A stretch of DNA of 64,000 nt from Bacteroidales bacterium (GTDB lineage Bacteria; Bacteroidota; Bacteroidia; Bacteroidales; WCHB1-69): assembly GCA_017633255.1 (NCBI GenBank), contig JAGBPS010000022.1:2963-66962 (forward strand). Reading direction: 5' to 3'. Positions within the stretch are counted from its first letter, which is position 1, and every line of letters starts with the position of its first letter. Positions 7,850 to 58,045 of this stretch are shown piece after piece. The position numbers and the translations under genes were made by a program. The notes under the pieces were generated by a model. The model made no database searches, had not been told where the DNA came from, and worked only from the letters and a program-made list of their open reading frames with translations.

Positions 7850-8842
7850 CTACTCTCTACTTTCTTGTCTCTCCTGTCTCTCCTGTTGTTTCGCCTCTTC
7901 CCACTGCTCAAAACGCTGGATGATTTTGGTCACCAGCTGGTGGCGCACCACATCGCCATTATCCATGTAGATGAAATCAATGCCTTTAATGTCTTTCAGT
8001 ACTTTGCCGATATGAATCAGACCTGATTTTTGGTGTTTCGGAAGGTCAATCTGGGTGATGTCGCCGGTGATGAAGAACTTGGCGTTGCGGCCCATACGGG
8101 TCAGGAACATCTTGATTTGGCTTTCGGTGGCGTTTTGTGCTTCGTCCAAAATAACATAGGCGTTGTCGAGAGTGCGGCCACGCATAAAAGCCAGAGGGGC
8201 TATTTCAATGGTTTTGTCGTCCAGGTAGGAAATCAGTTTTTGCATGGGCATCATGTCCCACAGGGCGTCGTATAAGGGTTGGAGGTAGGGGTCGAGTTTG
8301 TCGCGCAGGTCGCCGGGCAGAAAGCCCAGGTTTTCGCCAGCCTCTACCGCGGGGCGGGTCAGGATAACCCTGCGCACCTGCTTGTTTTTGAGAGCCCGCA
8401 CCGCCAAAGCTACCGCTGTGTAGGTCTTACCCGTACCGGCAGGACCGATGGCGAACACCATGTCGTTGGTGGCGGCACTGGCTACCATCTTACGCTGGTT
8501 GGGCGTGATGGCCTTGATGACGCGTCCCTCACGACCGTGTAAAATGATATTGTCAACAATACCGCTGCTGTCCATGCGGTAAAAACTGTCGTCTTCAGCG
8601 GCTGTGATGTTCAGAATGTCATTCTCATTAATCTTGCCAAATTGCTCGAAATGCTTTAGCAGCAACTCGAAACGAGACAGGAATAGCTCCACTTCACTGT
8701 CCTCACCCATGACCTTCACCTCGTTGCCCCGGGCGATGATTTTCACCTTGGGATAAATGTTTCGAAGCAGGTCGATATTGGAGTTATTATGCCCATAGAT
8801 GCCCATCACATTGGCAGGGTCAAGCGTAATATTTCTTTCCAT
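7850..8842 (-). CDS. phoH: PhoH-family ATPase
   Basis: 330 aa. Walker A GPAGTGKTYTAVALAV and DEAQN. The C-terminal QERQERQESRE is encoded by a 9-nt tandem repeat (CAGGAGAGA x2). Confidence 0.9.
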   Translation of the reverse strand: MERNITLDPANVMGIYGHNNSNIDLLRNIYPKVKIIARGNEVKVMGEDSEVELFLSRFELLLKHFEQFGKINENDILNITAAEDDSFYRMDSSGIVDNIILHGREGRVIKAITPNQRKMVASAATNDMVFAIGPAGTGKTYTAVALAVRALKNKQVRRVILTRPAVEAGENLGFLPGDLRDKLDPYLQPLYDALWDMMPMQKLISYLDDKTIEIAPLAFMRGRTLDNAYVILDEAQNATESQIKMFLTRMGRNAKFFITGDITQIDLPKHQKSGLIHIGKVLKDIKGIDFIYMDNGDVVRHQLVTKIIQRFEQWEEAKQQERQERQESRE

Positions 8843-8852
8843 TATGTGGACT

Positions 8853-9776
8853 TTATTTAATGACGATATAATCTAAAGGATTGACAGGGAAACCGTTATA
8901 CCATAGTTCGAAATGCAGGTGCGCCGACTGCATGCGGTTCTGTCCGCTGCTGCCCATCTTGGCAATCGCTTCTCCCATATTCACCTTGGCACCCACAGAC
9001 TTCAGCAGCACCTCGTTGTGTTTGTATATTGAGATAATATTGCCAGGATGCTGTATCACGATGGTGTTGCCGTTCATGGGGTCGAAACCGGTATAGATGA
9101 CAATACCTTCCGCCACGCTGGTGATAATCGTGTTCTTTTTGTTCTGAATATCAATACCATAATGATTGCTGGCCGCGTCAAACTCTTGAATCAGGATGCC
9201 TGTGGTGGGTGTATATAAGGTGATATTGCTGATGTCGGCTCGGTGGGATACTGGCAGTTTGCTGTTCTCTTCCTCGCTTTTCAGGTGATTGGCCAGCAGG
9301 TCTTCCGCCTGCATATCCACTTCCCGCATGGCTTCCATCTCCTCTTCTTTTCGTTCGGTCAGTTCATGGCTGGCGGCTTTGGATTTTCCAGCGGCCATGC
9401 TGTTTTCATCTTCTGTAATATTATCATTGATAACATTATAGAAATTATCCAGATACTGCTGATTCTGCTGTACCAGCAACGAAAGGGAGTCCATCTGTGC
9501 GGATACTTTCAGGTACAGCTTATGCTCTTCCAAAGTGGTGTAGCCGGGAATATAGTATTTCAGCGGGGTGACACTGATGATGATGGCCGTGAGGGCAATC
9601 AGAGCTACCGCCGCCGTGCCGCCAATGACAAAAATACGCTGGGGAGTGAGGATAAATGAATATTTTTCCTCGTGGTTCTCCTCCGTTTTGATGGACAGAC
9701 GATACCGGGTTTTCCAGTTGGAGGACAGCTTTTTCATAAACTGCTTGAACTTTCCGAATAGCTGGACAATGGACAT
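8853..9776 (-). CDS. M23 (LytM) family metallopeptidase, membrane anchored
   Basis: 307 aa with an N-terminal TM helix. The C-terminal domain has HYGIDI..HLHFELWYNGFPVNPLDY. Confidence 0.85.
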   Translation of the reverse strand: MSIVQLFGKFKQFMKKLSSNWKTRYRLSIKTEENHEEKYSFILTPQRIFVIGGTAAVALIALTAIIISVTPLKYYIPGYTTLEEHKLYLKVSAQMDSLSLLVQQNQQYLDNFYNVINDNITEDENSMAAGKSKAASHELTERKEEEMEAMREVDMQAEDLLANHLKSEEENSKLPVSHRADISNITLYTPTTGILIQEFDAASNHYGIDIQNKKNTIITSVAEGIVIYTGFDPMNGNTIVIQHPGNIISIYKHNEVLLKSVGAKVNMGEAIAKMGSSGQNRMQSAHLHFELWYNGFPVNPLDYIVIK

Positions 9777-9782
9777 TATTAA

Positions 9783-9845
9783 GGGTTAGGGATTAGGCGT
9801 TAGTAATTCAATTTTCAGTTTTCAGTTTTCAACTTTCAGTTTTTA
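9783..9845 (-). repeat. Stop-phased heptamer array (9 units) starting at the stop codon of the M23 gene
   Basis: Minus strand from 9845: TAAAAAC TGAAAGT TGAAAAC TGAAAAC TGAAAAT TGAATTA CTAACGC CTAATCC CTAACCC. Confidence 0.9.
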
Positions 9846-10802
9846 TGATAGAGCTTGATTGACAATTTTGGAGGATTCAAGAATAGCGTCGTATTCTTCG
9901 GGAGTGATGTCATCGAAGAAATAGTGTACAGGGTTAACTTTCACCCCGTTTTTGATTACTTCGTAATGCAGGTGGGGACCAAACGACAGACCCGTGTTGC
10001 CCACATAGCCTATCAGTTCGCCTCGTTTCACCTTCTGTCCAGGTTTCACCACCTTCTTGGAAAGGTGGGCATACAGCGATTGATACGAGAAACCGTGATT
10101 GATAATCACCGTGATACCGTATCCGCTGCCGCCTTTCTCGCGCGAAACCACTCCGTCGGCGGTGGCATATACCGGGGTTCCCTTTGGGGCGGTCAGATCC
10201 ACACCGGTGTGCATACGCATGGTTTTCAGAATAGGATGGTAGCGCGGACCGAAACCGGAGGTGATGGTCTTCAGGTTTTTCAGCGGACGGATAGCCGGGA
10301 TGGAGGTGATCATCTCCGATTTGCGCTGGGCAATGTCGGCGATGGTGTCGAACGACCGTGCCTGTGCGGACAAACGCACAATCAATTGGTCTGCTTTGGC
10401 AGAGGCGTTTTGCAGCAAAGACAGAGCGTCCTGATTGCCTGCGTCAACAGTTTGGTGCGCATAGAGTTGCGGATAACGCTCCGTGGCGGGTACGGGGTTG
10501 GTCTCGAAGATGACTCGGTAGATATTGTCGTCTCTGTTTTCAATGTCCGCCAGGGCTTCCGACATCAGGTCCAGTTGCTTGTCCATGTCCTGCAACTGTT
10601 CTTTCAGTTGCTCGTTTTCCTGCTGGAGCATCTTCTCCTTGGGAGAATCAATCAGATAAAAGGCAATCCAAATAAAAATGACCGCAAACGTCAAGGCGCT
10701 GGCAAATAGCCACAACACGCGCTTGATAATATCTTTAACGCTCAGCTTCACCTTCTCGAACGATAGGGTGTTGGTGTTAAAATGATAAAAGGTCTTGGCC
10801 AT
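9843..10802 (-). CDS. M23 (LytM) family metallopeptidase, membrane anchored, coiled-coil
   Basis: 319 aa. Motifs HTGVDL..GNTGLSFGPHLHYEVIKNGVKVNPVHYF. Confidence 0.88.
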   Translation of the reverse strand: MAKTFYHFNTNTLSFEKVKLSVKDIIKRVLWLFASALTFAVIFIWIAFYLIDSPKEKMLQQENEQLKEQLQDMDKQLDLMSEALADIENRDDNIYRVIFETNPVPATERYPQLYAHQTVDAGNQDALSLLQNASAKADQLIVRLSAQARSFDTIADIAQRKSEMITSIPAIRPLKNLKTITSGFGPRYHPILKTMRMHTGVDLTAPKGTPVYATADGVVSREKGGSGYGITVIINHGFSYQSLYAHLSKKVVKPGQKVKRGELIGYVGNTGLSFGPHLHYEVIKNGVKVNPVHYFFDDITPEEYDAILESSKIVNQALS

Positions 10803-10810
10803 TAAATTTG

Positions 10811-10890
10811 TTTAGGTTTTAGGGGTTAGGTTTTAGGGATTAGAATTTAGAAGTTTATCTTTTGAATTTTGAATTCTGAATTCTTTATTA
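10811..10890 (-). repeat. Heptamer array (11 units) in phase with the glucosaminidase stop codon
   Basis: Plus strand: TTTAGGT TTTAGGG GTTAGGT TTTAGGG ATTAGAA TTTAGAA GTTTATC TTTTGAA TTTTGAA TTCTGAA TTCTTTA, then tta (the stop complement). Confidence 0.85.
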
Positions 10891-12066
10891 CTTGCAGTCA
10901 ATACAAATCAACGATCCCACCTTAAATCCTCCGTCTGGGGTTTTGTTTCTTTTTATCAGGGTTTTCAGCTGAACCGCATATTTCTGTGACAGGTATCGGA
11001 ATGAATCCGCCATCTCCAGTTTGTGGTAGCTCACATCCGATTTGGTGTTTTTCATTTGCAGATATACCACCTCGCCTGGGATGGGCTCATAGTCGTCGGA
11101 GGCATCATTGTAAAATCTTAAATCCGATTCCATCAACTGGGCATCTTTGGCAATCTTGGCGTAGGTCTCACCTTTTTTGGCAATCACAAATTTGATTTTG
11201 TTGTTCTCGTACACATCCCGCTTGGTATAAGGAAAATAGCTGACCTTGTACTCGTTGGGCTGGGCAGTGAAAACATTCATGCTCACAATTGGACGGTTGT
11301 CGTTGGCAGAAGTATTCGGACGTTTTCCACGTTGAATATATACCTCAATACCATTGATAACGGTGTCAGGTTCAGTTCCGTTTTCGTAAGTCCGCTTTTG
11401 TTGGGCTGCTTCGTTTTGCTGAGCGGTTTCCTGAACTTCAGTTTTCTTTTTAGGCTGTTCTTTCGGAGTCTGGGTATTGCCAGAAGTAGTGGTCACGGGC
11501 TTTGTCCCTGACGTTTGTTGAGGTTCGGCTACCTCTGGTTCCGCAGTTTGTGCGGGCATTCCCTGCTTGTCGAAACGGGTGAGCGTGTATTTCTCGATAA
11601 TCGCAATCAGACGCTGGGCGTATTCCGGATTGACGGAATAGCCGCATGCTTGCAAACCATTGGCCCATGCCTTGTAGTCCATCGGAGACAACTGAAACAG
11701 TGACTCATAGCGGGGACGGGTGGTGAGGAAGAGATTGTGATCCTGGAAGGATTCCTCTACAGTGGCATACGTTCTGTAGCAGTTGCCGCTGCGGTCGGAT
11801 GTCTCGTAATATTGCTCACCTTGGTATTCGGTGTTGCACAGCAGTCCGAAATGATTGCGTGCTTCCCGTGCCACCTTGCTCTGTCCCGCATTGGACGAGT
11901 AGATAGCCTGCGCCAGCTTGATACTGGCGGGAATTTTATAGGTTTTCATGGACTGCACCGCCAGTTTCGAGTAATTGTCGATGTAGTTCAAAACGTCCTC
12001 TTCAGCATATTGTGAGTAGGCGCAAATTGTTGATAAACAAACAAATAATAATAATATTTTTTTCAT
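10888..12066 (-). CDS. Glucosaminidase (mannosyl-glycoprotein endo-beta-N-acetylglucosaminidase) with C-terminal LysM domains
   Basis: 392 aa with a signal peptide. Contains IPASIKLAQAIYSSNAGQSKVAREARNHFGL (glucosaminidase domain), a low-complexity linker, and LysM-like repeats (YAKIAKDAQL.., FRYLSQKYAVQLKTLIKRN). Confidence 0.8.
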   Translation of the reverse strand: MKKILLLFVCLSTICAYSQYAEEDVLNYIDNYSKLAVQSMKTYKIPASIKLAQAIYSSNAGQSKVAREARNHFGLLCNTEYQGEQYYETSDRSGNCYRTYATVEESFQDHNLFLTTRPRYESLFQLSPMDYKAWANGLQACGYSVNPEYAQRLIAIIEKYTLTRFDKQGMPAQTAEPEVAEPQQTSGTKPVTTTSGNTQTPKEQPKKKTEVQETAQQNEAAQQKRTYENGTEPDTVINGIEVYIQRGKRPNTSANDNRPIVSMNVFTAQPNEYKVSYFPYTKRDVYENNKIKFVIAKKGETYAKIAKDAQLMESDLRFYNDASDDYEPIPGEVVYLQMKNTKSDVSYHKLEMADSFRYLSQKYAVQLKTLIKRNKTPDGGFKVGSLICIDCK

Positions 12067-12071
12067 AATGT

Positions 12072-13181
12072 TTAGTGTTTCAATAAGATTATATCATTAG
12101 GATGAATAACTGAATTTTCGTTCAAATTATTGTATTTGAAAATGGAATTAAGCTGGACTCCATATTTCTGTGAGATGTAACGTAGTGTCTCTCCGGCACT
12201 TACTGTGTGTTTCTTTTCTTTGCCGGCTTTGGCTTTCAGGCCGATATACACCACTTCGCCCACTACAGCTTCCTGTTTTTTATCCACAATATCATTATAT
12301 CTGCGGATGTTTTTTTCAGAATCCTGCACATCCTTGGCGATGGAAGCGTAAGTCTCACCCTCAGCGACAATGACAAAATAGCAGCGGTTATTGGCATACA
12401 CCTCACGTTCCGTAAACGGATACTTCACTTTCGGATACTGATTGGGTTCCGCGGTGAATACTCCTGTCCTCGTAGGCTGTTGATCTATATTCGAAGAAGT
12501 CCCTTCCTGAGGAATAGCACTATTACTTGCTACCTGATTCCTGTCACCTGATTCCTGACCACTATTTTCTGTCCCCTGTAACTTGTCCCCTGTAACCTGA
12601 TAAGCTGTAACATGAGCTTCTGCCCAAGCGATATTTTCCTCGGTAAACCAGTTGCTCTCAGCTCGCTGTTGGCAAAGCGTGTCCCATTGGGCAATGTTGA
12701 AGCGTTCAATCAGGTCGATCAGTCGTTCGGCATATTTGGGATTGGTGGCGTAGCCGGCGGCTTTCAAGCCTTTGGCCCAGGCCTTGTAGTCCATCACATC
12801 CAGCTGAAACAGTCCTGCATAGCGGGGACGGGAAGTCAGAAAGAGGGAATGGTCGTTGTAAGAGTCTTCCACCCGTTCGTATTTTCTGAAGCATTCCTGG
12901 AGTTCGTCATCGTCAATTCTCACGGTGTCGCCGGTCCATTCTTTGTGGCACTTGATGCCGAAATGGTTTTTTCCGTCACGGGCCAAGCGGCTGGTGCCGC
13001 AGGCGCTTTCAAATACGCCCTGTGCCAAAGTGATGCTGGCGGGGATCTTGTACTGGTACATCTTCAGGATGGCCAACTCCTTGTATTGGTCGATATAGCG
13101 GGCAATGTCCTCCTCAGTATATTGGGCGGAGACTTGCAAGCTGACTAACAGGCAAAGAAGTGCAATTATTGTCTTTCTCAT
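12072..13181 (-). CDS. Glucosaminidase with C-terminal LysM domains (tandem paralog of 10888..12066)
   Basis: Track ORF 12072..13208 trimmed to MRKTIIALLCLL (signal peptide). Contains IPASITLAQGVFESACGTSRLARDGKNHFGI. The linker is encoded by 7-nt periodic DNA. Confidence 0.8.
   Translation of the reverse strand: MRKTIIALLCLLVSLQVSAQYTEEDIARYIDQYKELAILKMYQYKIPASITLAQGVFESACGTSRLARDGKNHFGIKCHKEWTGDTVRIDDDELQECFRKYERVEDSYNDHSLFLTSRPRYAGLFQLDVMDYKAWAKGLKAAGYATNPKYAERLIDLIERFNIAQWDTLCQQRAESNWFTEENIAWAEAHVTAYQVTGDKLQGTENSGQESGDRNQVASNSAIPQEGTSSNIDQQPTRTGVFTAEPNQYPKVKYPFTEREVYANNRCYFVIVAEGETYASIAKDVQDSEKNIRRYNDIVDKKQEAVVGEVVYIGLKAKAGKEKKHTVSAGETLRYISQKYGVQLNSIFKYNNLNENSVIHPNDIILLKH
12531..12612 (-). 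repeat. 7-nt periodic repeat inside the coding linker of glucosaminidase 12072..13181
   Basis: cctgattcctgtca/cctgattcctgacca and tgtcccctgtaac x2. The 15-mer TGTCCCCTGTAACCT (12584-12598) recurs intergenically at 57240-57254. Confidence 0.8.
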
Positions 13182-13262
13182 CAGGTTGTTTTTTTTAATT
13201 AAGAACAAAGAATTAAGAGTTAAGAATGTTGATTTGTTTTTTTCGTTAAGAAGTTGAGATGA

Positions 13263-13325
13263 ATTTTTAATTCTTAGTTTTTAGTTCTTAATTTTCAACT
13301 TTCAGTTTTCAATTTTCAGTTTTCA
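13263..13325 (-). repeat. Stop-phased heptamer array (9 units) starting at the ddl stop codon
   Basis: Minus strand from 13325: TGAAAAC TGAAAAT TGAAAAC TGAAAGT TGAAAAT TAAGAAC TAAAAAC TAAGAAT TAAAAAT. Confidence 0.92.
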
Positions 13326-14303
13326 GTTTTTTAAAGCGTCCATCACCACACTTGTGTAAAAGTCCTTCAAGTTAAACCCACTGGCTGTCAGCTGGGCAGG
13401 AATGATACTCATCGCCGTCTGTCCCGGAATGGTGTTGATTTCGATAAAATAGGGAACTCCGTCCGGCGTGATGATAAAATCGACTCTCACAATTCCGTCG
13501 CAGTTTAAAAAGTGGTAAATCTGCTCCGAATATTTCAGCACCAGTTCATAGCTTTCTTTCGGAATACGGGCGGGGGTGTACATGTCGTGCAGACCGTCGG
13601 TGTATTTGGCTTGGTAGTCGTAGAATTCGTTTTTGGGACAGATTTCGGTCACGGCCAAAGCTCTGGGCTTGCCATCCACCAGGGCCACACCGCAGGCAAG
13701 TTCCTGACCGGGCACCAATTTCTCGATCATCAGCTGATCGTCATATTTGAAAGCCTCTTCCACAGCGGCTTTCACCTCGCTGGGGTTATGCACCTTGGTC
13801 ACCCCCACGCTGGAACCTGAGTTGCACGATTTGATGAAGCAGGGATAGCCACAAACCTTCTCTATCTCGTCCATGTCGATTTTATCGTCGTGGTAGTAAT
13901 GCAGCGACGGAGCAATCGGCACTTTCAGCTCGCGCACAGCCAAATTGCAGAAATATTTGTTGAAGGTCAAAGCCGAACAGAAGCAGTCGCAGCCGGTATA
14001 GGGGATATCGAGCATGTCGAAATAACCCTGGAACTTGCCGTTTTCGCCTGGATTGCCGTGGATGGCAATAAACACCACATCGAAAACGATTTTTTGCCCG
14101 TTGATTGTCAGCGAGAAATCGTTTTTGTCAATCAGGTGTTTCTGTTTTTGCTCATCTGTGTAGCTCCATTCGGTGCCTTTTACATGGATAAAGTAAGGAT
14201 TGAACAAATTTCTGTCTAACTGCGACATGATGTTGTCGCCGCTTCTGAGGGAGACCTCGTATTCGCCGGAATTTCCGCCTGCCAGAACTGCTACGTTTTT
14301 CAT
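13323..14303 (-). CDS. ddl: D-alanine--D-alanine ligase
   Basis: 326 aa. MKNVAVLAGGNSGEYEVSLRSG plus ATP-grasp motifs. Confidence 0.92.
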   Translation of the reverse strand: MKNVAVLAGGNSGEYEVSLRSGDNIMSQLDRNLFNPYFIHVKGTEWSYTDEQKQKHLIDKNDFSLTINGQKIVFDVVFIAIHGNPGENGKFQGYFDMLDIPYTGCDCFCSALTFNKYFCNLAVRELKVPIAPSLHYYHDDKIDMDEIEKVCGYPCFIKSCNSGSSVGVTKVHNPSEVKAAVEEAFKYDDQLMIEKLVPGQELACGVALVDGKPRALAVTEICPKNEFYDYQAKYTDGLHDMYTPARIPKESYELVLKYSEQIYHFLNCDGIVRVDFIITPDGVPYFIEINTIPGQTAMSIIPAQLTASGFNLKDFYTSVVMDALKN

Positions 14304-14407
14304 TTTACATTATTATTTATTCTGGCAAAGATACAAAAATCAACCCCAGCAATTTCTTAATGAGGGATTACTTTTGAACATGGTGAAGTTAATTTTCACC
14401 TTTGTGT

Positions 14408-14564
14408 GAGATTCTGCCTGTCGCTGCGCTCCATGCGGAATGGTGCGCAGTGATTTGAAGTAACGGAGAGGAGGGGGGATGGGCGACGCCCATCCCCCCT
14501 CCTCTTATATCCATCAGGAGCATCACCATTCCGCAAGCTCACGCAGTGAGAGCAGCGGAATCTC
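14408..14564. repeat. 157-bp nested palindromic element (MITE/REP-like)
   Basis: Imperfect ~40-bp terminal inverted repeats (GAGATTCTGCCTGTCGCTGCG..GCGGAATGGTG / CACCATTCCGC..CGCAGTGAGAGCAGCGGAATCTC) flank a perfect 19-bp-arm palindrome at 14467-14505 (AGAGGAGGGGGGATGGGCG a CGCCCATCCCCCCTCCTCT). A third arm copy lies at 14595-14626. Confidence 0.85.
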
Positions 14565-15019: not shown

Positions 15020-15219
15020 AGTTTATTGTATTGGTTCACGTAGGTGTTTGAAGCAGCAAGAGTCAGCCCATTTTAAATCATTTTTTTACATTGCAAATAT
15101 ACAATTTATTTTAATATAAATTGCAAAAATTATTTTTAATGTGATGTATGAAAACCAAATTCAAAAAATTTTCAGTAAGAGTAATTTAACTCCCATGCAT
15201 GGCAATCTTCTAAAAACAA

Positions 15220-15264
15220 TTGGCACATTAGCACATTTGCTAATTAGCACATTGAAAAATTTCG
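15220..15264 (+). repeat. Promoter-proximal octamer module TTGGCAC-ATTAGCAC-ATTTGCTA-ATTAGCAC-ATTGAAAA
   Basis: Runs directly into the prfA -7 box. Related copies at 30505-30537, 31977-32033 and 57704-57778(-). Confidence 0.85.
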
Positions 15265-28774: not shown

Positions 28775-30391
28775 ATGGAAAACAATTATACTGACAACAA
28801 TAGTTCAGCCAACAACCGCATCAAGAATTTCTTCACCATCGCCATCTCGTTTCTGGTGGGTATGACGGTGGCGCTGTATTTTGTTCCCGGTCGGCAAAGC
28901 GGACTGAGCAAGATGCAAAGCAACAAATTGGATGAGGTGGTGAAGTACGTTAACTCATATTATGTGGATACGGTGAACACGGACAAATTGTTTGAAATCG
29001 CCATTAATTCGATGTTGCAGGAGCTGGACCCGCACTCCACCTACGCCAATGCCACTGAAAACAAAGCCATGATGGAGAGTTTGGAAGGGGCTTTTGAGGG
29101 AGTGGGCATCCAGTTCAGCATCATGAACGACACCATTATGGTAATTTCCACGGTCAGTGGCGGTCCTTCCGAAAAGCAGGGCATTCGTGCCGGCGACCGT
29201 ATTGTGACTGTGGATGGCAAGAATGTGGCGGGTATCGGTATTCAGAATGATGAGGTGATGAAGATGCTCCGTGGCAAGAAGAAAACCACGGTGGTCATCG
29301 GCATTTTGCGACAAGGTTCCGTAAATGATTACACGGTCACCCGTGACGTGATACCTACCTATACGCTTGATATTTCCTACATGGTTGATGATCACACGGG
29401 TTATATCAAAATCAACCAGTTTGGGGCTACGACTGCCGACGAATTTGAGGCGGCGATCAAGAAGTTGAAAAAACAGGGTATGACCAAGATGATACTGGAT
29501 TTGCGAAGCAATTCAGGAGGTTTCCTGGATGCCGCTATCCAGATTTGTGACGAGTTCTTGGCCAAGGGGGAGATGATTGTTTACACGGAAGGCTTGCATG
29601 TGCCTACGGACAAGATATATGCCACTCGTTATGGTAATTTTGAAAAGGGTGAAGTGGTGGTACTGATTGACGATTTCAGCGCTTCTGCCAGTGAGATTGT
29701 GGCCGGAGCCATCCAGGATAATGACCGTGGTATTGTGGTGGGTCGTCGTTCTTTCGGAAAAGGACTGGTACAAAGACAGATAGACCTTTCTGACAAGTCT
29801 AGCATCCGTCTGACAGTGGCGCGTTATCATACCCCCAGTGGACGATGCATCCAGCGTGAATACGGCGAGGGAACGGAAGCTTATTACGAGGATTTCATTG
29901 ACCGCTATTATCGTGGCGAGATGAGCCATTCCGATAGCATCAAGTTTGATGAGAACCAGAAATTCACTACCAAGAAAGGACGTACGGTGTATGGTGGTGG
30001 CGGCATTATGCCCGACTATTTCATTCCTTTGGATGAAGACAGCACATTGAATGCTTATTACCAGGTGTTGAATTCATCAGCCATTATCCAGTTTGCTTTC
30101 AATTATGCTACTGATCATAAGGATAAAATTCTGAAACAATTCCCCACGGCTCAAGACTATGTGAAGAAAATGACGGTGAGCAATGATTTACTCAAACAAC
30201 TGCTGAATTTCTATACGCAAAAGACAGGATTGAAGGTGAAAGACCTTAATGCAGAATCTATCAAGGAACTCAAGGTTTGGCTCAAAGCCTTGATTGGACG
30301 TGATGTATACCAAGACGAAGCTTTCTATCCCGTCATCAACAGCACTGACAAAACTTTCCTGAAAGCAGTAGAGCTGACAATTGAAAACTGA
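28775..30391 (+). CDS. S41-family C-terminal processing peptidase (Ctp/Tsp) with PDZ domain
   Basis: 538 aa. Contains GVGIQF, a PDZ domain (GPSEKQGIRAGDRIVTVDG), DLRSNSGG and SASASEI..GKGLVQ. Confidence 0.9.
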   Translation: MENNYTDNNSSANNRIKNFFTIAISFLVGMTVALYFVPGRQSGLSKMQSNKLDEVVKYVNSYYVDTVNTDKLFEIAINSMLQELDPHSTYANATENKAMMESLEGAFEGVGIQFSIMNDTIMVISTVSGGPSEKQGIRAGDRIVTVDGKNVAGIGIQNDEVMKMLRGKKKTTVVIGILRQGSVNDYTVTRDVIPTYTLDISYMVDDHTGYIKINQFGATTADEFEAAIKKLKKQGMTKMILDLRSNSGGFLDAAIQICDEFLAKGEMIVYTEGLHVPTDKIYATRYGNFEKGEVVVLIDDFSASASEIVAGAIQDNDRGIVVGRRSFGKGLVQRQIDLSDKSSIRLTVARYHTPSGRCIQREYGEGTEAYYEDFIDRYYRGEMSHSDSIKFDENQKFTTKKGRTVYGGGGIMPDYFIPLDEDSTLNAYYQVLNSSAIIQFAFNYATDHKDKILKQFPTAQDYVKKMTVSNDLLKQLLNFYTQKTGLKVKDLNAESIKELKVWLKALIGRDVYQDEAFYPVINSTDKTFLKAVELTIEN

Positions 30392-30430
30392 AAACTGAAA
30401 GTTGAAAACTGAAAACTAAGAATTAAAAAT
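30382..30430 (+). repeat. Stop-phased heptamer array (7 units) spanning the ctp stop codon
   Basis: TGAAAAC TGAAAAC TGAAAGT TGAAAAC TGAAAAC TAAGAAT TAAAAAT. The second unit (30389-30391) is the real stop. Confidence 0.92.
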
Positions 30431-30492
30431 ATTTCAACAATTCAACAATTCAACAGTTCAACAATTCAACATTCTTAACTTTTAATTCTTAG
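30416..30492 (+). repeat. 13-bp perfect stem CTAAGAATTAAAA / TTTTAATTCTTAG enclosing a (TTCAACAA)x5 octamer array
   Basis: Stem arms at 30416-30428 and 30480-30492. The loop at 30433-30472 reads TTCAACAA TTCAACAA TTCAACAG TTCAACAA TTCAACAT. Confidence 0.8.
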
Positions 30493-30504
30493 TTCTTAAC
30501 TTAA

Positions 30505-57703: not shown

Positions 57704-57778
57704 AATTAGCAAATTAGCAAATTAGTTAATTAGTAAATGATTTTAATGTGCTAATGAGTCTATGTGCTAATGTGCCAA
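57704..57778 (-). repeat. Octamer module copy (minus orientation)
   Basis: Reverse complement: TTGGCACATTAGCACATAGACTCATTAGCACATTAAAATCATTTACTAATTAACTAATTTGCTAATTTGCTAATTG, followed by the -7 box. Confidence 0.85.
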
Positions 57779-58045
57779 TGAATAATTGGTAATTTACTGA
57801 ACGAATTAATGTACCAGTGGAAGATGTTGAAGAGGACAAATACATGAAAGGGATAGAAGGAGGGTGCCGAAGGTCGGGTTTTCGGAATTTTGGAAGGAAA
57901 TTTTGCAAAACTTGAAAGCCTGAAATCGGTCTCCAAAGGGTCGACTCTCACTACCATAAGCGATGATTGATGAGGGCGTTTAAAACAAAAAACCAGCAAA
58001 CTAATTTATTTAACTTGCTGATTCTGATTGTTTTGCAAACTGCTG

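Follow-up and report, generated by a model that had tools for sequence, protein, structure and literature searches.

A stop-anchored heptamer array between two M23 peptidase genes of a rumen Bacteroidales genome

The spacer between the two M23 peptidase genes

The window analysed here is a stretch of 64,000 nucleotides (C26:2963-66962) from a 2.28-Mb rumen Bacteroidales MAG of 44 contigs and 46% GC, related to Bacteroidales MAGs from the rumen of yak, sheep, deer and cattle. Its minus strand carries a cell-wall operon in which ddl, two glucosaminidase-LysM genes, two M23 cell-wall peptidase genes and phoH follow one another head to tail. The upstream M23 gene (9843..10802, minus strand) encodes a protein of 319 aa that matches Pfam PF01551 (E 6.4e-35), and an identical protein has been called on 23 public contigs. 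The downstream M23 gene (8853..9776, minus strand; 307 aa) is supported by the ORF list, by Pfam and by public gene calls. The same two genes, with the same 66-nt gap between them, appear in the gene calls of ten other assemblies, and the species is the same.

The two M23 genes are separated by a 63-nt array. Read on the minus strand from 9845 to 9783, it consists of nine gap-free heptamers: TAAAAAC, TGAAAGT, TGAAAAC, TGAAAAC, TGAAAAT, TGAATTA, CTAACGC, CTAATCC and CTAACCC. A stop triplet (TAA or TGA) forms the first three bases of units 1 to 6, and that of unit 1 is the genuine stop codon of the upstream gene (TAA, 9845..9843). Units 7 to 9 (CTAAYSC) carry TAA at unit positions 2-4, and as a result each of the three sense frames is closed three times within the array. 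[quoted passage not shown] A sequence-only reading of this DNA had described nine heptamers starting on the M23 stop, six of them opening on a stop triplet and the last three with TAA shifted by one, in an array that ends 6 nt ahead of the next start at 9776; sequence and coordinates agree exactly with this description, and the placement of the stop triplets and the 6-nt distance were borne out on re-reading.

The periodicity of the array is well beyond chance. Identity at lag 7 is 39/56 and at lag 14 is 32/49, compared with 10-25 matches at other lags, and none of 100,000 shuffles reached a lag-7 count of 39 (shuffle maximum 33). TRF reports positions 9807-9843 as a repeat of period 7 with 5.3 copies and a score of 53. 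With nine units, the spacer contains more than the three head-to-tail 7-nt copies beyond chance that are the minimum for a heptanucleotide simple-sequence repeat (SSR).

Sequence reading, TRF and a count of unit families divide the array into two modules. Module 1 (9804..9845, minus strand) comprises six heptamers of the family TGAAARY, in which unit 1 is the stop codon together with its ancestral A-rich context and unit 6 is degenerate. Triple-unit matches to TGAAARY number 97 in the genome, compared with 3 for the reversed control. Module 2 (9783..9803, minus strand), defined by sequence reading, comprises CTAACGC, CTAATCC and CTAACCC, the reverse complement of a TAGGGRT/TTAGGG-type family. 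On the antisense strand this module is rich in purines, and it adjoins the downstream start. Units of the same family also lie at 10811-10850, ahead of the point where the upstream M23 gene starts.

Elsewhere in the operon, the glucosaminidase-LysM protein encoded at 12072-13208 is 369 aa long in most contigs of the same species and 376 aa in two of them (L040 and L041). This difference is probably a 21-nt (three-heptamer) in-frame polymorphism sited in a 7-nt-periodic linker near 12530-12600.

Heptamer arrays across the genome

TRF reports 564 rows of period 7 and 374 rows of period 8 in the genome, with about 85% of their bases in intergenic DNA. Although 87% of the genome is coding, only 15% of the bases in period-7 rows lie there; TRF rows of periods 6, 9 and 12 are mostly coding. 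Arrays of 7- and 8-nt units make up about 9% of intergenic bases, and the extragenic excess of 7-nt repeats that marks heptanucleotide SSRs is present genome-wide. Within the genus, the families have a patchy distribution.

Our own lag-7 detector found 734 arrays, in 263 spacers. The gene calls were also our own, dicodon-scored ORFs in which stop positions are robust and start positions less so. Tandem spacers contain 2.3 arrays per kb and convergent spacers 2.1, compared with 0.49 in divergent spacers. Behind the 923 genes followed by a downstream region of 50 nt or more, the counts of stop triplets are 132, 120, 128 and 102 at +7, +14, +21 and +28, compared with about 50-55 elsewhere. Stops at both +7 and +14 follow 75 genes, and the corresponding counts for the six other phases are 13, 8, 10, 27, 10 and 10. 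Array onsets crowd at -10 to +8 around the first base of the stop codon, with the mode at 0/+1.

There is also a clear polarity. In tandem spacers, sense purine-rich arrays favour the stop side (143:32; median distance from the stop, 4 nt), and antisense purine-rich arrays favour the start side (56:28). Convergent spacers have a sense purine-rich array after each gene (35:2 and 19:8). Both halves of this polarity are seen in the M23 spacer, with TGAAARY units on the stop and CTAAYCC units against the next start. Inverted arms of the same family were considered as a general architecture and rejected, as they were found in only 37 of the 263 array-bearing spacers; the M23 spacer is not among these.

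A few unit families are dominant among these arrays, recurring at hundreds of loci, and the pattern T-R-R-N-R-R-Y fits 44% of arrays, compared with 13% expected. Ordinary stop contexts are a weak candidate for the local seed of these families: stops without arrays are mostly TAA, their contexts are diverse, and 14% of them fit T-R-R-N-R-R-Y.

In composite spacers, families follow one another in a single 7-nt phase and in a fixed order, TGAAARY, TAGKGRT, TAAGAAY, TCARAAT, CCATAAY, C-rich 8-mers (CCTYCTMA) and then units of the ACCCCTA type. Within the window, minus-strand reading places such ordered spacers at 13209-13325, 30374-30499 and 2403-2550. With TRAYART left out, transitions between families in the genome are 21 forward and 1 backward. 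TAAGAAY-TCARAAT-TCARAAT has 27 matches in 7 genomes and the reverse order has 1; in the genus, TGAAARY-N7-TAGKGRT-TAGKGRT has 5 matches against 0. A further rule, TRAYART before TGAAARY, was set aside, since its ratio of 9:3 in the genome was not replicated in the genus (29:24). No description of a fixed order of heptamer families within composite spacers was found in the literature. The pneumococcal BOX elements (boxA-(boxB)n-boxC) are ordered intergenic modules of variable copy number, 45-59 nt in length, that fold. The composite spacers resemble BOX elements in their ordered modules, variable copies and dispersed intergenic location, but differ from them in that the modules are runs of 7-nt units and mostly unfolded.

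Other repeats of similar period were encountered. The octamer families GTGCTAAT / ATTAGCAC and CTAATTTG form tandem arrays of their own (59 and 34 TRF rows); octamer arrays, which in the window lie at 15219-15261 and 57704-57780, are often near gene starts genome-wide and constitute a class separate from the stop-anchored heptamers. In two genomes of another genus of the family (G024 and G039; loci L062-L081), (TGAAAAT)3-4 lies within a dispersed repeat with conserved flanks, ..TTCAATAAT (TGAAAAT)3-4 GAGCTGACGCA.., the consensus of which reads ..YTTCAWTAAT, array, GAGCTGACGCAYGA..TGATGTY.. and which is mostly away from ORF ends. As a replicate of the stop-anchored arrays, (TGAAAAT)n of G024 and G039 was rejected because it belongs to a different repeat and only 6 of 22 copies lie behind a long ORF. 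Pattern matches in other genera are accordingly not all one phenomenon.

Evolution of the spacer and its stop phase

Gene trees group the loci as ((window, L002), L001), sister to (L003, (L005, (L004, L017))), with the horse-gut loci L006-L008 outside. In the horse-gut clade the operon is tightly packed, with gaps of 5/9 nt between ddl and the first glucosaminidase gene, 4/6 nt between the glucosaminidase genes, 9/17 nt before the first M23 gene and 10/12 nt between the M23 genes, and 39 kb of sequence from this clade contains no 7/8-nt arrays. The same four junctions measure 19-141, 4-6, 5-98 and 11-109 nt in the rumen relatives, which indicates that the arrays are expansions of very short operon spacers. 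An array born in so short a spacer will touch both the stop and the start.

Between species, the M23 spacer changes in steps of whole units, as is characteristic of heptanucleotide SSRs; orthologous spacers range from 11 to 109 nt and differ in unit count. L002, L003, L004 and L017 have 4 to 7 TGAAARY-type units (counting the stop-context unit) followed by differing second modules, L005 has a different unit family, and L001 has an array-less spacer of 11 nt despite grouping with the window and L002. The flanking proteins are 87-97% identical between species whose M23 arrays differ in type, number or presence. The alleles also differ beyond the spacer, in the five codons after the downstream ATG: array-bearing alleles (window, L002, L003, L004, L005 and L017) encode the N-terminus MSIV(Q/E), while array-less alleles encode MKIKEF (L001) or MEFKSF (L006/L007). 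MSIVQ is itself encoded by a two-unit heptamer duplication, TGTCCAT TGTCCAG (9775..9762). This replaced N-terminus suggests recombination or the sorting of alleles, not simple growth in steps, and arrays seem able to rewrite gene starts.

Within the species, six complete contigs from different samples have an M23 spacer of the identical length of 66 nt, and the sole SNP among them, G to A at 9816 (TGAAAAT to TAAAAAT), occurs in L040, L041 and L043. Slippage at this spacer is therefore not rapid. The spacer also differs from phase-variation SSRs, in which shifts in unit number within a population toggle a reading frame or the spacing of a promoter, as it lies between a stop and a start and was constant in length in these six contigs. 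The ddl spacer does vary within the species, by 14 nt (two units) in L042 and by more in two other samples. In one strain of the species, L047, the spacer between ddl and the glucosaminidase gene reads GGGTGGCCGAAGGCCGGGGTAGTGACG... in place of heptamer arrays and resembles a REP-like hairpin family of this genome. Four of the Logan short-read contigs (L042, L044, L045 and L047) stop 27-30 nt into the M23 array. Array-rich genomes are likely under-assembled in MAGs because shared TGAAARY units break de Bruijn assemblies, and perhaps the array-armed cassettes described below are under-assembled too.

The phase between array and stop codon can probably be traced to the arrays themselves. Of the 75 in-phase genes, about 45% have an array that extends one or two units upstream into the ORF; as the ORF then has to end at the first unit in frame, the phase is inevitable in these cases. 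Stop usage in the 75 genes (TGA 31, TAG 20, TAA 24) departs from that of the genome (18%, 19% and 64%, respectively), and it is therefore the array family that sets the stop codon, and not the stop codon that sets the family. The phase-0 stop triplet is kept at a rate of 0.94 in sense arrays abutting a stop, 0.91 in those further off and 0.89 in arrays antisense to the neighbouring gene, and TGG is rare to nearly absent in units in all three settings. Since retention is equal across orientations, T-R-R belongs to the unit families and is not maintained by translation. At the M23 spacer, the window and L002 have a first unit of 7 nt, L003 has one of 6 nt, and L004 and L017 have one of 8 nt; the orthologues thus lack a conserved stop phase. 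Array-less relatives, which read TAAAAATCTGC(A/G)..ATG, also have the stop TAA and the context TAAAAAT-CTG around it, and both are therefore ancestral.

The stop phase is thus most likely a by-product of array anchoring and unit turnover, and not a translational device. It is very improbable that the M23 array is a selected three-frame 'backstop' for ribosomes that run out of the first peptidase gene by read-through or in a shifted frame. Such a device would fit the repeated closure of all sense frames in 63 nt, the periodic stop triplets on at least one strand in 87% of intergenic arrays (56% for random intergenic heptamers) and the sense stops borne by 81% of stop-abutting arrays. However, stop retention is alike in antisense arrays and TGG avoidance ignores orientation, so that selection for a three-frame stop is unsupported; in addition, the abundant TCARAAT family follows genes without providing any sense stop, close relatives manage without the array, and one or two stops would be enough, leaving nine units superfluous. 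The recurrent pattern to which the sequence-only reading assigned the array, stop-phased heptamers, is strongly present genome-wide at gene 3' ends, with the M23 array as a typical case; any purpose-built translational role of the phase or of the stop triplets is unsupported. The variable first unit, the retention of T-R-R in antisense arrays and the missing array in L001 and the horse-gut clade speak against such a role. For annotation, the stop-in-phase appearance should not be taken as a recoding or termination signal, and the ends and starts of genes beside such arrays can be rewritten by them; in this genome, an array unit provides the end of many genes.

The transcribed spacer offers no structured element. 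Its RNA is 46% A and essentially unstructured, with an MFE of -1.3 kcal/mol, compared with -4.2 kcal/mol for shuffles, of which 192 of 200 fold at least as well. No terminator-like site, with a GC-rich hairpin and a U tract, was found on the minus strand within 8700-14500, and the Rfam 15 covariance models gave no match at E<=1 within 9300-11100. A hairpin or terminator was rejected on account of the absent fold and the absent site on the gene strand.

An unstructured RNA could nevertheless act in cis. Each 7-nt unit would then be a putative binding site for a protein that recognises single-stranded RNA, such as ribosomal protein S1 or one with a cold-shock domain, and this protein would control downstream translation or the stability of the upstream message. 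Such a role has been proposed for the TAACTGA repeats of Beggiatoaceae, where it is argued for repeats just ahead of starts, with CspB binding as one protein per heptamer (MacGregor, 2015; PMC4679880). The strong sense-strand polarity relative to the upstream gene, the A-rich and unfolded RNA, the array end 6 nt from the start codon, and the limited set of unit families with their excess of T-R-R-N-R-R-Y would all suit this role, yet nothing is conserved at the M23 site, where unit type, number and presence vary between species with nearly the same flanking proteins. Moreover, the same families are found both in sense and in antisense to genes, and the affected genes are functionally unrelated. 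A cis-acting RNA element is accordingly improbable.

Origin of the arrays and relation to known repeats

The best explanation, with a probability of roughly 0.6, is that the M23 spacer is a pair of heptanucleotide SSR arrays that expanded in an ancestral 10-12-nt gap of the cell-wall operon and is a dispensable by-product. It builds on the observed periodicity, genome-wide anchoring and polarity, short ancestral spacers and change in unit number between species; as the generating process at this spacer we infer slippage. Indels of 7 nt would be lethal within ORFs and harmless between them, and arrays arising by replication slippage or unequal exchange in a short gap would come to butt on the stop on one side and on the start on the other. 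Module 1 (TGAAARY) may have absorbed the ancestral stop and its A-rich context (TAAAAAT-CTG) as its first unit. With T-R-R in every unit of module 1 and gain or loss in 7-nt steps, the ORF would always end on a unit, and the array therefore looks in phase with the stop. Module 2 (CTAAYCC) would be a TTAGGG-type array that runs the opposite way and has its anchor at the downstream start.

On this reading, the genes themselves can do without the array. Its presumed effect on expression would be to replace tight translational coupling with a 66-nt A-rich unstructured linker in which all three frames are closed, and the second peptidase gene would then start by independent, Shine-Dalgarno-less initiation.

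Plain slippage nevertheless fails to explain why a few families recur at hundreds of loci, or why families keep a fixed order in one continuous phase. Neither does it account for the five replaced N-terminal codons downstream of the array, or for a distribution at odds with the gene tree, in which L001, sister to the window and L002, has a spacer of the ancestral type. Several of these features lend some weight to a less likely alternative, in which the M23 spacer is an ORF-less remnant or non-autonomous relative of modular intergenic elements with 7/8-nt array arms. The full-length members would hold an Avd-like gene for a four-helix-bundle protein (PF05635, '23S rRNA intervening-sequence protein') between inverted arms that span the distance from a stop to the next start. 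Blocks would be placed or replaced by transposition-like insertion or gene conversion, and slippage would only tune unit numbers afterwards.

Elements of this form exist in the genus. Among 14 PF05635 genes (L048-L061) sampled from six congeners (G050, G087, G037, G071, G062 and G079), 13 are flanked by inverted 7/8-nt arrays; the copies represent some 10 different sites, of which 9 have array arms. The distance from the upstream stop to the left arm is at most about 15 nt, and the right arm extends as far as the downstream ATG. Examples of left and right arms, respectively, are AGTGGTC x6.7 and CTGACCC x8.3, CGGGAAGA x3 and TCTTCCCG x2, and ATTGTTGA x6.8 and TAAACAAC x7.1.

Comparison of orthologous sites reveals filled and empty states. 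In the genome studied here, the site at C7:5188-5326 is empty (stop, TCCCT, ATG), while G050 and G087 carry a cassette of ~480 nt there. C30:64981-65122 is nearly empty, and G062 and G079 carry two different cassettes at that position. At C40:76340-76505, where G050 and G087 again carry a cassette, this genome has an ORF-less composite array of 165 nt. The arm families CCTGTAA, CTGACCC, CCTYCTAA and AAGACGGG also form ORF-less arrays in this genome, and L004, L005 and L017 have arm families in their M23 spacers. Placement or replacement in blocks would be consistent with these states, as well as with the ordered grammar, the replaced N-terminus, the tree-incongruent M23 allele and the patchy distribution within the genus.

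The M23 spacer itself shares only one feature with the cassettes, a gap filled from the stop to the next start. It lacks both a PF05635 ORF between arms and arms that are reverse-complementary. Its two modules are not complementary to each other, the spacer does not fold, and GTTTTCA, the complement of TGAAAAC, is missing from it; neither a terminal inverted repeat nor a target duplication is visible. A PF05635 ORF is found in the M23 spacer at none of 47 related loci, and tblastn with the 14 cassette proteins gave no match in the window, L001-L035 or L038-L047. Furthermore, the ancestral TAAAAAT-CTG could have seeded the unit AAAACTG locally.

Across the family, PF05635 is present in 108 of 121 genomes, including the array-poor G062, G079 and G108, and its copy number does not track array load. 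The array-rich genome studied here has a single divergent copy without arms. PF05635 was therefore rejected as a determinant of array load, given the lack of correlation over the 121 family genomes and the arm-less copy of this genome.

The wider proposition, that the M23 spacer and several hundred similar arrays are not independent slippage products and instead are ORF-less members of one modular element that homes to stop-start gaps and whose full-length form carries PF05635, is doubtful. If it were true, the order of unit families would record how the elements are built or layered. It would also tie the bacterial heptamer repeats (STRR, TAACTGA and GGGAATC) to a gene-carrying element that resembles the ORF-bearing intervening sequences (IVS) of 23S rRNA.

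That resemblance has its limits. PF05635 is Avd-like (PMC10053308), and the ORFs of 23S rRNA IVS (S23p / PF05635; Leptospira and Coxiella) and the accessory protein Avd of diversity-generating retroelements belong to the same protein family as the genes of the congener cassettes. As in IVS, the congener PF05635 genes are enclosed by long inverted arms with the potential to pair into a stem of the RNase III type. Unlike IVS, the cassettes are sited between protein-coding genes instead of in rRNA, with tandem 7/8-nt arrays as arms. The M23 spacer differs further from IVS in having no ORF and no complementary arms.

Under the preferred reading of a slippage-grown SSR pair, the closest comparisons are with heptamer repeats described in other bacteria. 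Heptamers dominate the simple-sequence repeats for which a slippage hypothesis was put forward by Mrazek, Guo and Shah (2007), as summarised in PMC4679880. In that summary, these LSSRs resemble the present arrays in their tandem 7-nt units, intergenic location, copy number varying between relatives, patchy distribution and attribution to polymerase slippage; the arrays here differ from the LSSRs so summarised in that several families occupy ~9% of intergenic DNA in one 2.3-Mb genome and follow a fixed order.

The GGGAATC and GGGGAYT heptamers of Xanthomonas and Nostoc lie at most 50 bp past a stop on the sense strand or ahead of a start on the antisense strand, overlap stop codons, are scarce between divergent ORFs and change fast between relatives (Rehm et al., 2015; PMC4692102). 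The arrays described here follow the same positional rules: module 1 of the M23 spacer begins on the stop, and module 2 represents the case that is G-rich on the antisense strand. Unlike the Rehm repeats, module 1 is A-rich and contains no GG, making a quadruplex impossible, and no preference for four units is seen. On the antisense strand, module 2 reads GGGTTAG GGATTAG GCGTTAG, with one GGG tract, compared with the at least four G3+ tracts of a G-quadruplex.

TAACTGA direct repeats have been described in marine Beggiatoaceae, in Cyanobacteria and in five Bacteroidetes including Paludibacter, where they close all forward frames, overlap upstream stops and end just ahead of starts (MacGregor, 2015; PMC4679880). 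They share with the present arrays an intergenic location, a heptamer unit with stops in three frames, frequent placement on the upstream stop and an end few nt before the start, without a Shine-Dalgarno sequence. Rotated to TGATAAC, the TAACTGA unit differs by one or two changes from a TGATAAT/TGACAGT family of this genome. However, the M23 units are TGAAARY and CTAAYSC, and anchoring in this genome is mainly to the stop and not to the start.

The M23 array is thus a known kind of heptamer repeat, in which the lineage and the unit families are new, and the parts worth following are the ordered grammar and the arms of the PF05635 cassettes. This small gut genome is a clean comparative system for an old puzzle, the accumulation of 7-nt repeats after bacterial stop codons: sister clades with and without arrays can be compared, the ancestral spacer measures 10-12 nt, sites occur in both empty and filled form, the unit families are ordered, and PF05635 cassettes have array arms.
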